A DNA stretch of 64,000 nt from an uncultured Verrucomicrobia subdivision 3 bacterium. GTDB lineage: Bacteria > Verrucomicrobiota > Verrucomicrobiia > Limisphaerales > UBA11358. Positions 2,874-27,056 of this stretch are shown in pieces. The notes under the pieces were generated by a model that did not search any database, was not told the origin of the DNA, and was given only the letters and a program-made list of their open reading frames with translations. Location of the stretch: assembly GCA_903835255.1 (NCBI GenBank), contig CAILMI010000026.1, forward strand, positions 2,740-66,739. The letters run 5' to 3'. How positions within the stretch are numbered: the first letter of the stretch is position 1; every line of letters begins with the position of its first letter. A program made the translations under genes and the position numbers.

Positions 2874-3527
2874 ATGCTCATCGCCTTCCACAAACCGTTC
2901 GGCGTCCTGTCGCAATTCACCGGGGACGGCTCGCCGAACCGCGCGCTGGCGGAATTCCGCTTTCCCGCCAATGTCTATCCCATTGGGCGGCTGGATGCGG
3001 ACTCCGAGGGATTGCTGCTGCTGAGCGACGAGCCGGCCTGGAACGAGCGGCTGCTGCACCCGCGCCACGCGCATGCCCGCGAGTACTGGGCGCAGGTGGA
3101 GCGGATCCCGACGCGCGAGGCACTGGATGCCCTGCAGCGCGGCTTGGTGATTCAAGGCCGCAAAACCCTGCCCTGTCGCGCCTGGATCTTGGAGCCGCAG
3201 CCACTAGTCGGACCTGCCACTCCCTGCGCGCCATCCTCCGCCCGCCAGAGCGCTGCAATTGATGACGTCGCGCACGGAGTGATGCATCCTACCTTGCCGC
3301 CGCGCAATCCGCCCATCCGCTTCCGCAAGAACGTGCCGGACTGCTGGATCGGCCTGGAACTGATTGAGGGCAAGAACCGGCAGGTGCGGCGGATGACCGC
3401 GGCCATCGGGCACCCGACGCTGCGGCTGATCCGGGCGCGGGTGGGCGGATTGCAACTGGGAGATTTGGCCGCGGGCGAATGGAAGATCCTATCCGAGGCG
3501 GAACGCGCGCGGGCGGCGCAGGATTAA
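2874..3527 (+). CDS. rluE: rRNA pseudouridine synthase (RsuA/RluE family) with an in-frame insertion
   Basis: GRLDADSEGLLLL catalytic motif, EGKNRQVRRMTAAIGHPTLRLIR. Confidence 0.85.
   Translation: MLIAFHKPFGVLSQFTGDGSPNRALAEFRFPANVYPIGRLDADSEGLLLLSDEPAWNERLLHPRHAHAREYWAQVERIPTREALDALQRGLVIQGRKTLPCRAWILEPQPLVGPATPCAPSSARQSAAIDDVAHGVMHPTLPPRNPPIRFRKNVPDCWIGLELIEGKNRQVRRMTAAIGHPTLRLIRARVGGLQLGDLAAGEWKILSEAERARAAQD
3207..3293. repeat. REP-like imperfect palindrome inserted in frame in the pseudouridine synthase gene
   Basis: 24-bp arms at 3207-3230 and 3269-3292 match 17/24 as inverted repeats; 87 nt = 29 codons. Confidence 0.7.
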
Positions 3528-25330: not shown

Positions 25331-25446
25331 GCTGCTTAAAAACGGGAATGGACAGAAAAAAAATGCAGAATAATATTAATTTTTTCAGCGGTATTATTCA
25401 TAAACGGAACTGGAAATATGGCTGTTCAACTTAACCTTGGCATATC

Positions 25447-25540
25447 GGTGGGCGGGGCGGGCAACCCCCTGCCCGCCGCTGTTGCCCATCATCGCGGGCT
25501 GACTGACCACGGCGGCGCTCACGGAGCAACGCGACCCACC
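25447..25540. repeat. REP-like element of the same family as the rluE insertion
   Basis: 25513-25540 matches 3266-3293 at 20/28 nt; internal GCGGGCA/TGCCCGC hairpin. Confidence 0.6.
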
Positions 25541-25631
25541 AGCCCACAGTTGCCAAGAACGGCTATAGAGGGGCAGATCTGCCTTAGTTTAGACCCGAAG
25601 AGTTTGAACTGACGCGCAGGAAACAACGGAT

Positions 25632-27056
25632 ATGCTGTTTAATTCCCTCACCTTTTTAGCCTTCTTCGCCTTGGTCTTGGGGCTGCATCGCCTGCCAATC
25701 GCTTGGCGGGCAAAGAAGTTCAACCTCTTGGTGGCCAGCTACATTTTTTACAGCGCCTGGAATCCGGTTTTTCTGCCACTCCTCATGGCGACAACGGTTT
25801 TAGATTGGGCGGCAGGGTCGTTGATTTACAAAGCTAAAACACCCACTTCCAAGCGCGCTTACTTAATCATAAGCCTGGTCGGCAATCTGGGGATGCTGTC
25901 CTTTTTTAAGTATGGCGAGTTTTTTTTGGAAAACTTTACCCGCCTTGTTCAGGGATTCGGAATTCATTATGCCCCCCCGCAATGGAGCCTTCTCCTGCCC
26001 CTCGGAATTTCATTTTACACTTTCCACTCCCTCTCCTACGTGCTCGACCTATACCGGGGCAAAGCCAAGCCCGTAGAATCCTTTCTGGACTACGCGCTCT
26101 TCGTTACATTTTTTCCAACCCTAGTCGCCGGACCGATTCTGCGAGTCCATCAATTTGCACCGCAACTTGTCAAACCGAAGGCGGCCACCGGCGAGCAATT
26201 CAGCCGCGGGCTAGGACTGCTCGTGCTGGGGTTATTTGAGAAGTGCGTATTGGCAGACGGCGTGTTCGCTCCAGTCGTCAATGCCGTTTATGATTCCCAC
26301 CAGGTGCCGGATTTTTTCTCCGCCTGGTCGGCGCCCATTCTTTTTGGCTCTCAGATATTCTGCGATTTTGCCGGCTACTCCACCTGCGCAGTCGGGACGG
26401 GTCTCTGCTTTGGGTTTTTGATTCCAAACAACTTTAGAAACCCATTTGCCGCCGTCGGTTTTTTTGATCTCTGGAGTCGCTGGCATATTTCATTGTCCAC
26501 CTGGATGCGCGATTATGTTTTCCTCTCCATGCGCGGGAGCCTTCGACGCGGCACCCGCGCCTCCTTCAATTTATTTTTCACAATGGCACTCGTCGGATTG
26601 TGGCATGGCGCTTCCTGGACATTTGTCGTCTGGGGATCCCTCCAGGGGGGATTGCTGATTCTCGAACAATATCTGAGACGCTGGTGGGGCAATCTGGCCT
26701 TTCTGAACACTCTTCCCGGCCAACTCGGTCTCGCTTTGCTGACTTCGCTGGTTGCGCGGTTGACCAATGTTTTTTTTCGCGCAGGGAGCCTGTCAGAGGC
26801 CTGCCGGATTTTCAAGGGACTGACAGGCGCCGCCGGTGAAGGCGCTTTGTTTTCTGTGGACCGACTGGACGCCGGAGTGGCGTGGGGGGTCGCGGCGGCA
26901 ATTTTTGCCTGGCAATGGTGGAATCGTGATGAACCCGCTCAGAAGCCGCACCCCAATTTCGGCTGGGGGGCACAGGTTGTCGGGGTAAGCATCATGCTAG
27001 TTTTAATCATCATCGCATCCGGAGAAGACAATGCGTTTATCTATTTTCAATTCTGA
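25632..27056 (+). CDS. MBOAT O-acyltransferase (AlgI/DltB family)
   Basis: LPLGISFYTF, LVAGPI, DFAGYS, WSRWHISLSTW, GLWHGA. Confidence 0.92.
   Translation: MLFNSLTFLAFFALVLGLHRLPIAWRAKKFNLLVASYIFYSAWNPVFLPLLMATTVLDWAAGSLIYKAKTPTSKRAYLIISLVGNLGMLSFFKYGEFFLENFTRLVQGFGIHYAPPQWSLLLPLGISFYTFHSLSYVLDLYRGKAKPVESFLDYALFVTFFPTLVAGPILRVHQFAPQLVKPKAATGEQFSRGLGLLVLGLFEKCVLADGVFAPVVNAVYDSHQVPDFFSAWSAPILFGSQIFCDFAGYSTCAVGTGLCFGFLIPNNFRNPFAAVGFFDLWSRWHISLSTWMRDYVFLSMRGSLRRGTRASFNLFFTMALVGLWHGASWTFVVWGSLQGGLLILEQYLRRWWGNLAFLNTLPGQLGLALLTSLVARLTNVFFRAGSLSEACRIFKGLTGAAGEGALFSVDRLDAGVAWGVAAAIFAWQWWNRDEPAQKPHPNFGWGAQVVGVSIMLVLIIIASGEDNAFIYFQF

Follow-up and report, generated by a model that had tools for sequence, protein, structure and literature searches.

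A decaying REP pair, very probably carried as a translated loop by the RluE pseudouridine synthase of a Limisphaerales bacterium

Palindromic repeats inside bacterial genes

Repetitive extragenic palindromic sequences (REPs) with a GTAG head, and the inverted REP pairs called REPINs, are mobilised by REP-associated tyrosine transposases (RAYTs) (Nunvar 2010; Bertels & Rainey 2011, PMC3116915; Di Nocera et al. 2013, PMC3733652). GTAG REPs are also found within genes, mostly as dimers encoding 20-30 residues (Di Nocera, De Gregorio, Rocco, BMC Genomics 2013, PMC3733652). These intragenic copies are most numerous in the verrucomicrobium Opitutus terrae, and in other bacteria they occur in genes for RNA helicases and in the pseudouridine synthase genes truB and truA; in some families the GTAG head is mutated to GTGG (PMC3733652). 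The subject of this report is an 87-nt palindromic element within an rluE-type gene for a 23S rRNA pseudouridine synthase, in a 64,000-nt stretch of a bacterial genome assembly (hereafter the window; contig C26, positions 2740-66739). The genome assembly totals 3.17 Mb (70 contigs, 59.6% GC); by the names of its sources the organism belongs to the Limisphaerales, Verrucomicrobiota. The element is very probably an old, decaying GTAG-headed REP pair that integrated in frame and is tolerated as a translated loop.

With the described GTAG REPs and REPINs, the family of this element shares the GTAG head on an imperfect palindrome of ~26 nt, the pair of inverted units around a variable spacer, and the hundreds of mostly extragenic copies, with several families per genome and a REP-flanked RAYT in the genome. 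It differs from them in that no RAYT flanked by this family was found, the pair usually lies in a 150-165-nt unit or in arrays, and the window copy has lost its GTAG, which now reads GTCG. The intragenic dimers of PMC3733652 agree with the present case in their 20-30 residues, their position in known genes, their phylum, and their host classes (pseudouridine synthase, RNA helicase), whereas the rluE host, the order Limisphaerales, and a single codon junction with at least six families are new.

Rickettsia palindromic elements (RPE; Ogata et al. 2000, cited in PMC3733652) are likewise in-frame palindromes in housekeeping genes, tolerated as surface segments and absent from insert-free orthologs. 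However, they are unrelated in sequence and host clade, RPE-1 is longer (~100-150 nt), some RPEs belong to the CGTC class, and their hosts are obligate intracellular bacteria, whereas the organism here is a free-living soil or peat bacterium. The resemblance to RPE, proposed in an earlier interpretation made from the letters of the window (the sequence-only reading), is treated as an analogy of mechanism and not as family membership, the host belonging to the Limisphaerales and the consensus having a GTAG head. REPs are, furthermore, insertion targets for insertion sequence (IS) elements in clusters of REPs and bacterial interspersed mosaic elements (BIMEs) (cited in PMC3733652). The rluE locus would show the same draw of further elements leading to mosaic or chimeric arrays, but here the nest lies inside an open reading frame (ORF), where mosaics persist only if they are in frame and free of stops.

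GTAG REP dimers translated within genes have been published before, for Verrucomicrobia among others (PMC3733652); the dense and varied occupation of a single codon junction goes beyond that description. The present locus extends these translated dimers to another housekeeping RNA-modification enzyme.

The element and its repeat family

The 87-nt palindrome was confirmed in frame within the pseudouridine synthase gene at the coordinates first given for it, and it encodes residues 112-140 (VGPATPCAPSSARQSAAIDDVAHGVMHPT) of the product (Table 1). Its inverted arms are imperfect and have GTAG-like ends, also as first described. The left end is GTCG, a degenerate GTAG, and the right end is CTAC, the reverse complement of GTAG. 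A repeat search delimited inverted arms of 21 nt at 3218-3238 and 3261-3281 with 81% complementarity, and over the full 26-nt terminal arms (3207-3232, 3267-3292) 18 of 26 positions are complementary. Folded as single-stranded DNA, the element reaches -18.8 kcal/mol (z=-2.64), a value equalled by 3 of 200 shuffles; the palindrome on its own is only modestly beyond chance.

The left arm encodes VGPATPCAP, the counterpart of VGRVTPCAP in orthologs, which is frame -1 (the reverse-strand frame) of the consensus REP unit. The right arm encodes AHGVMHPT, compared with GAHGVTRPT in the consensus. The peptides of both arms derive from the same REP unit, and the insert is therefore read as a symmetric pair of that unit. 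Among orthologs of the same family the ends encoded by the arms are conserved, and the middle ranges from ~5 to 20 residues.

Family membership is the decisive test of the observation, and, as judged from repeat searches, the element is a degenerate member of a dispersed family, the most abundant hairpin-forming repeat of this genome. Exact copies of the 13-nt core of the right arm, CGCGCACGGAGTG, number 82 in the genome, where 0.29 would be expected, and the hit of this core at C26 5957 on the minus strand is the left arm with one mismatch. A family profile searched with nhmmer gave ~158 matches at E<0.01 on many contigs, and it matched the element at window positions 3206-3301 (E=2.5e-6) over positions 46-143 of the hidden Markov model (HMM), the whole central module. 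From the aligned copies this module is GGTAGGGCGGGCAGTCCTCTGCCCGCC - spacer - GGCGCGCACGGAGTGACGCGCCCTACC, two related GTAG-headed hairpin units in inverted orientation, with GTAGGGCGGGCAGTCCYCTGCCCGCC and GTAGGGCGCGTCACTCCGTGCGCGCC as consensus units. The family has the properties of the REP class, being a short imperfect palindrome with a GTAG (GTRG) head, present in high copy, dispersed and mostly extragenic, and arranged as an inverted doublet. Usually the module forms part of either a 150-165-nt unit that has inverted ends of its own or a tandem array whose period is ~210 or ~238 nt.

In the head-to-tail arrays of either period (e.g., C24:35290-35854 and C49:10012-10576), successive REP pairs are separated by one of two conserved linkers. 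The 30-mer GACGGCGCGCACGGAGTGACGCGCCCTACC is 100% identical in genomes from several taxonomic families of the order (relatives G003, G004, G018, G027, G035, and others), which is striking for a non-coding repeat.

The related copy noticed earlier at 25447-25540 is real and forms part of a full-length member of the family. It sits between genes in AT-rich DNA; 57 nt downstream of it, at 25633, begins a gene (MLFNSLTFLAFF..., membrane-protein-like). Two of the six reading frames of the central module are open. A family copy flanked by at least 50 codons on either side occurs within fourteen ORFs, three of which are real genes (rluE, GH78, DeaD); GH78 and DeaD were verified by Pfam and add two in-frame intragenic copies, located outside the window on C65 (GH78) and C12 (DeaD). 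Eight further ORFs spanning family copies had no Pfam match and were rejected as spurious.

Table 1. Coordinates and sequences of the rluE element, of its family copies, and of the families found at the same junction in orthologs. Positions are those of the window unless a contig or locus is named.
Feature	Position	Strand	Sequence	Basis or remark
rluE-type 23S rRNA pseudouridine synthase gene, host of the insert	2874-3527	+		217 aa; PF00849, RluE, TIGR00093, 2oml/2olw matches
Degenerate REPIN-like palindromic element, 87 nt, read as translated in frame (residues 112-140)	3207-3293	+		Family profile match, empty orthologs
Left arm, inverted REP unit with degenerate head	3207-3232	+	GTCGGACCTGCCACTCCCTGCGCGCC	Reverse complement has one mismatch to family core
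Spacer between arms	3233-3266	+		Varies in length and sequence among same-family orthologs
Right arm plus trailing C	3267-3293	+	GTCGCGCACGGAGTGATGCATCCTAC-C	26/30 identical to family consensus GACGGCGCGCACGGAGTGACGCGCCCTACC
Full-length intergenic family member, central module and outer inverted ends	25412-25576	+	TATGGCTGTTCAAC...GCCAAGAACGGCTATAG	nhmmer E=1.2e-29, HMM 7-166
In-frame family copy in GH78 alpha-L-rhamnosidase, between concanavalin-like and six-hairpin domains	C65:10740-10815		Peptide ..TPAGEAGSPLPAAGAHGVTRPTLQS..	
In-frame family copy in C-terminal linker of DeaD-type DEAD-box helicase	C12:165880-165959		Peptide ..AGRAGSSLPAAVEKSLSGAHEVTRPAS..	
Family 1	Loci L001, L002		GTAGGGCG..	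Peptide VGRAVPCAP...GAHGVTRPT
Family 2	Loci L010, L011		GGTGGGGCGAG...CTCGCCCCACC	Peptide WGEA...DARPT
Family 3	Loci L004, L012, L040		GTAGCGGCGTCTCGGCAGAGCGCCGC	Peptide SRQSAA...AALCRDAAT; 26/26 inverted repeat in L040
Family 4	Loci L007, L008, L013		GGTAGGG + two hairpins + CCCTACC	Peptide GSSRCDDRTAQRAVPT
Family 5	Locus L009		GGTAGGAGACGACGT...ACGTCGTCTCCTACC	
Family 6	Locus L039		GTAGTGGCGACG...CGTCGCCGCCAC	

Empty, filled and scarred alleles

Forty related genomes, one per species, were searched, and rluE was found in 36 of them. The site is empty in 21 of the 36, where the protein reads EPQP-xx-PPR with nothing between. Deleting the 87 nt from the window gene leaves EPQP-LL-PPRNPPIR, the exact length of the insert-free orthologs (EPQP-EI-PPR) and the compact form that the sequence-only reading had noted. 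The gap of ~29 residues that it predicted also appears against E. coli RluE. With HMMER, query residues 2-107 and 141-206 align to chain residues 13-117 and 122-187, query 108-140 is skipped, and ~29 query residues are without counterpart. Sampling was also widened to 80 loci, taking in other Verrucomicrobiota (Opitutaceae, Akkermansia, Prosthecobacter, Chthoniobacterales), Planctomycetota, Omnitrophota, cyanobacteria, and Bacteriovoracaceae; there the site is empty (about 73/79) except in the six nearest relatives. Among the compared loci the gene order folB - HAD/NUDIX - rluE - uvrD is conserved, and they are therefore regarded as true orthologs.

The history of the insert may be followed in its close relatives. 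At the same junction, ortholog L038 carries GAA|GTAGGGCGTGTCACTCCGTGCGCGCC...GGCGCGCACGGAATGACGCGCCCTAC|C ATT, a near-perfect version with arms complementary at 24 of 26 positions (z=-7.4), and by this comparison the window copy is its decayed counterpart. The nearest insert-free relative, L037 from a JGI metagenome contig, has flanks 93-95% identical in nucleotides and is 78 nt shorter. Where the window has the 87-nt element, L037 reads ACGGCCGGGCGCGTTGCC (peptide TAGRVA); it retains GGGCGCG...TTGCC from both edges, so that the remnant looks like the scar of an imprecise deletion of the palindrome. An insert 93% identical in protein (2 of 29 residues changed) is found in P0001, a cluster of 34 sequences on three contigs from independent NCBI, Logan, and ENA sources. 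The occurrence of the insert in independent assemblies excludes an assembly artefact.

In the window the insert is bordered by CTA|...|TTG and in the orthologs by GAA|...|ATT, the empty site reading GAA ATT, and no target-site duplication was seen. A miniature inverted-repeat transposable element (MITE) with target-site duplication was rejected, there being no duplicated bases at the flanks.

The host protein and its loop

The host protein consists of an RsuA-family catalytic domain with the GRLD catalytic Asp and without an S4 domain, as in RluE, the Psi2457 synthase of 23S rRNA. The catalytic GRLD motif (G38 R39 L40 D41, residues 38-41) is intact, and it is invariant across 61 orthologs. PF00849 is the only Pfam domain reported (E=1.4e-16). 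Among NCBIfam models, RluE matches with E=2.7e-44 and TIGR00093 exceeds its cut-off. The score with the RluE equivalog is 151 bits, short of the cut-off of 284, and the exact substrate of the enzyme is therefore only presumed. The best PDB match, both by sequence (~1e-42) and by fold, is E. coli RluE (2OML/2OLW). Purifying selection acts on the gene: the ratio of nonsynonymous to synonymous substitution rates (dN/dS) is 0.07 in comparison with L037 and 0.11-0.12 for more distant orthologs.

An AlphaFold model built on a diverse alignment has a mean predicted local distance difference test score (pLDDT) of 88.7 and a predicted template modelling score (pTM) of 0.84. Superposed on E. coli RluE (2OML), it gives a template modelling (TM) score of 0.91 and a root-mean-square deviation of 2.1 A. 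Residues 118-136 are the only segment with pLDDT <50, and short strands at ~111-112 and ~140-141 draw both ends of the insert together. The RluE fold is thus predicted to be kept, with the insert as its sole disordered loop.

The filled loci are open in one frame without stops in all 15 species that carry an insert, and ~110 further filled metagenomic homologues are likewise open and stop-free. The added length is divisible by 3 in all filled alleles. Such a constraint on frame and stops would not exist if the segment were spliced out or bypassed, which argues that it is translated. The insert is best read as a tolerated selfish passenger and not as a functional module. For annotation, the 29 extra residues of RluE are repeat-derived filler and not a new domain, and the motifs VGRAVPCAP...GAHGVTRPT, SRQSAA...AALCRDAAT, and WGEA...DARPT mark translated REPs in Limisphaerales proteins.

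RAYT transposase and the proposed route of entry

A REP/RAYT system is present in the genome. The RAYT gene, at C12:147546-148157 outside the window, was first traced by a weak tblastn match with the RAYT of relative G003, and it scores 85.3 bits with NCBIfam NF047646 against a cut-off of 80. In our alignment to E. coli RayT it shows the HxH motif (HLH) and the Tyr in ESYSEKWLY. REPs of the GTAGCGGCGGTCTGTGACCGCC family lie on both sides of it (region C12:147473-148187), a doublet abutting the ATG and one unit following the stop, and the gene itself contains an in-frame doublet of that family (..RRSQSAAAEGAAAAAVCDRRS..). A RAYT, which had been suggested as something to look for, is therefore there, but it is flanked by a GTAG REP family other than that of the rluE element. 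The three checks that the sequence-only reading had put forward (ortholog gap, further genomic copies, RAYT gene) thus all spoke for its interpretation. The Pfam model Y1_Tnp (PF01797) gave no match in the genome at E<=1e-5, the RAYT reaching only E=0.0098, probably because the in-frame doublet splits the gene. By Pfam, Y1_Tnp genes are present in 35 of 41 relatives; tblastn with the Y1 transposases of relatives gave no matches in the genome, and neither Pfam nor tblastn pointed to another Y1 transposase. A screen limited to Pfam would call this genome RAYT-free, whereas NF047646 finds the gene.

The following route would account for the locus. A GTAG-headed, REPIN-like pair very probably integrated into rluE between two codons of the surface turn EPQPE|IPPR, presumably as single-stranded hairpin DNA by RAYT-type transposition and without a target duplication. 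With 87 nt and no stop in the frame used, the gene would have stayed open and gained a disordered loop of 29 residues. Survival of the element would be owed to a length and a frame that left rluE open, and to the permissive turn in which it landed; decay would have followed. With the GTAG head changed to GTCG and arms matching at only 18 of 26 positions, it is now presumably immobile.

Several points weigh against this account. The insert scores weakly against the family profile (27 bits), mostly from its right arm. The mobile unit may not be a bare REP pair, given the larger 150-165-nt units and the arrays of 210 and 238 nt. Translation is inferred from the conservation of the frame, and the neutrality of the insert is inferred as well. 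No RAYT flanked by family-1 REPs was found in the genome, the assembly being 97.5% complete and absence not proven, and none of six Y1 transposase loci of relatives had family-1 REPs around it. Relative G003 has a RAYT and a family-1 REPIN 270 bp apart, yet the hairpins that immediately flank this RAYT are different ones.

One junction used by many families

Of the 36 species with rluE, 15 have this junction filled; 13 of these are among the 23 species of the genus, and 2 are among the 13 species from elsewhere. Orthologs with an equivalent segment had been named as an observation that would speak against an insertion; such segments do exist, but the likeness is superficial, the site being filled by other, unrelated palindromic repeats. 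At the DNA level all 15 inserts are palindromes with GTAG or GTGG heads (fold z-scores from -2 to -12 across families), their sequences are mutually unrelated, and they fall into at least six families (Table 1). At least two more insert types are known only as peptides, AADVSRL...LTSAAT and GRLGEPSLP. Each family tested is a dispersed repeat in the genome whose rluE holds it. Family 1 is present in G000 and G004; family 3 is abundant in G011 and G009 and absent from G000. Flanks that are near-identical as protein are 81-91% identical as DNA and therefore belong to different species.

Some alleles are composite. The chimeras L003 and P0109 join a left REP of family 1 to a complete family-2 element; P0043 and P0056 are family-1 inserts with a nested piece of 10 residues, and P0081 has units in both orientations. 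The insert columns were left out of a maximum-likelihood tree computed for 143 orthologs, and 56 changes of insert class are required on it (minimum 8, shuffled mean 73.5). The tree has 187 columns and is poorly resolved, with 76 of 140 branches open, and its well-supported branches alone force at least six changes for family 1 and at least five for family 3. The metagenomic protein sample is enriched for filled alleles, since the query carried the insert. In several species (L024, L017, L019) the vacant junction is itself a small palindrome with the insertion point at its centre, CGGAA-A-TTCCG or a sequence close to it, which is not universal among empty sites.

For the repeated use of this junction the favoured explanation, with an about even chance of being correct, is nesting and replacement at a resident REP together with palindrome-driven deletion, filtered by selection for an open frame. 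A resident REP hairpin would draw further REPs, deletions driven by the palindromes would trim them, and selection would keep the in-frame, stop-free products. The chimeric and nested inserts fit new elements landing in or beside residents, and this could by itself account for the re-use of the junction.

A somewhat unlikely alternative, ranked below nesting, is that EPQPE|IPPR is a hot spot to which integration is directed by sequence or structure, each REPIN family having landed independently. The exactness of the position speaks for it, as the inserts read at the DNA level all sit exactly between the same E and I codons (GAA|...|ATT), and so do the unrelated interiors of the palindrome families and the many changes of insert class on the tree, also those on well-supported branches. 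The GH78 loop serves as a control: only 2 of 14 orthologs are filled there, both by family 1. Some vacant rluE sites form the mini-palindrome, but it is missing from other empty sites. The count of changes is weakened by the poor resolution of the gene tree and by the bias of the protein sample to filled alleles, and recombination between lineages could shuffle old alleles. Such shuffling as the source of junction re-use is the least likely of the three explanations and seems rather improbable.

In its boldest form, proposed tentatively and with less than an even chance of being correct, this idea would make the junction a true 'nest' or hot spot for REPIN integration in Limisphaerales, with six to eight or more GTAG/GTGG families entering, replacing one another, and being deleted while the frame always stays open. 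If this is true, a single short gene would present empty, filled, chimeric, and scarred alleles side by side as a natural series, from which the still-unproven chemistry of RAYT/REPIN insertion and excision and the target rule could be read. The choice of site by REPINs and their mobilisation by RAYTs are still unsettled, and a locus with many independent junctions provides concrete substrates for both.

Other explanations of the insert

The hairpin might act in the RNA or DNA of the rluE-uvrD transcript, through mRNA stability, a translation pause, or a gyrase site, and be retained for that reason. REPs are known to influence mRNA decay and termination (PMC3733652), and the predicted RNA hairpin has -33 kcal/mol in the window and down to -64 kcal/mol in orthologs. 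However, the window hairpin is the weakest of the compared rluE inserts (z=-2.1), decaying rather than maintained, and empty alleles are common; such a role is judged improbable.

An adaptive loop, e.g., one making a new contact with the ribosome or a partner, would agree with the action of RluE on 23S rRNA, where a surface loop could touch RNA, and with the occupancy of the site in more than half of the species of the genus. Yet the loop is unconserved in sequence, being drawn from unrelated families of 14 to >40 residues, close relatives are empty or scarred, and disorder is predicted. The parts that are conserved are DNA arms common to hundreds of non-coding copies. Adaptation at the protein level is therefore held to be very improbable, and the preferred reading remains that of a decaying REP pair tolerated as a translated loop.

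In yeast mitochondria, GC-rich palindromic mobile inserts are bypassed by ribosomes, and a segment removed or skipped in the manner of an intein, an intron, or a translational hop could be imagined here; no intein or intron signature was found, Pfam giving PF00849 only, and the frame and stop constraint in 15 species loci and ~110 homologues makes this hardly credible. A chance palindrome, an ordinary lineage-specific indel, or a metagenome assembly artefact has in its favour the modest fold z-score of the element alone (-2.6), but this reading may be taken as effectively refuted, with next to no probability left, by the family profile match, by the presence in orthologs, at this very position, of copies of the element close to the consensus, and by the independent 34-sequence cluster.

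Inserts in further loops of RluE

Repeat-like inserts are also seen in two other loops of the protein (examples are DLPRQSASTAGG and NVGGRAAAAARGGAAAPPPPVSTGY). The second site, QFTxD|GSPNR, is occupied in P0065, P0073, P0094, P0111, L012, and L075, and the third, GISI|QGRK, in P0114 and P0119. Since these loops carry such inserts, RluE appears to have at least three permissive insertion sites.

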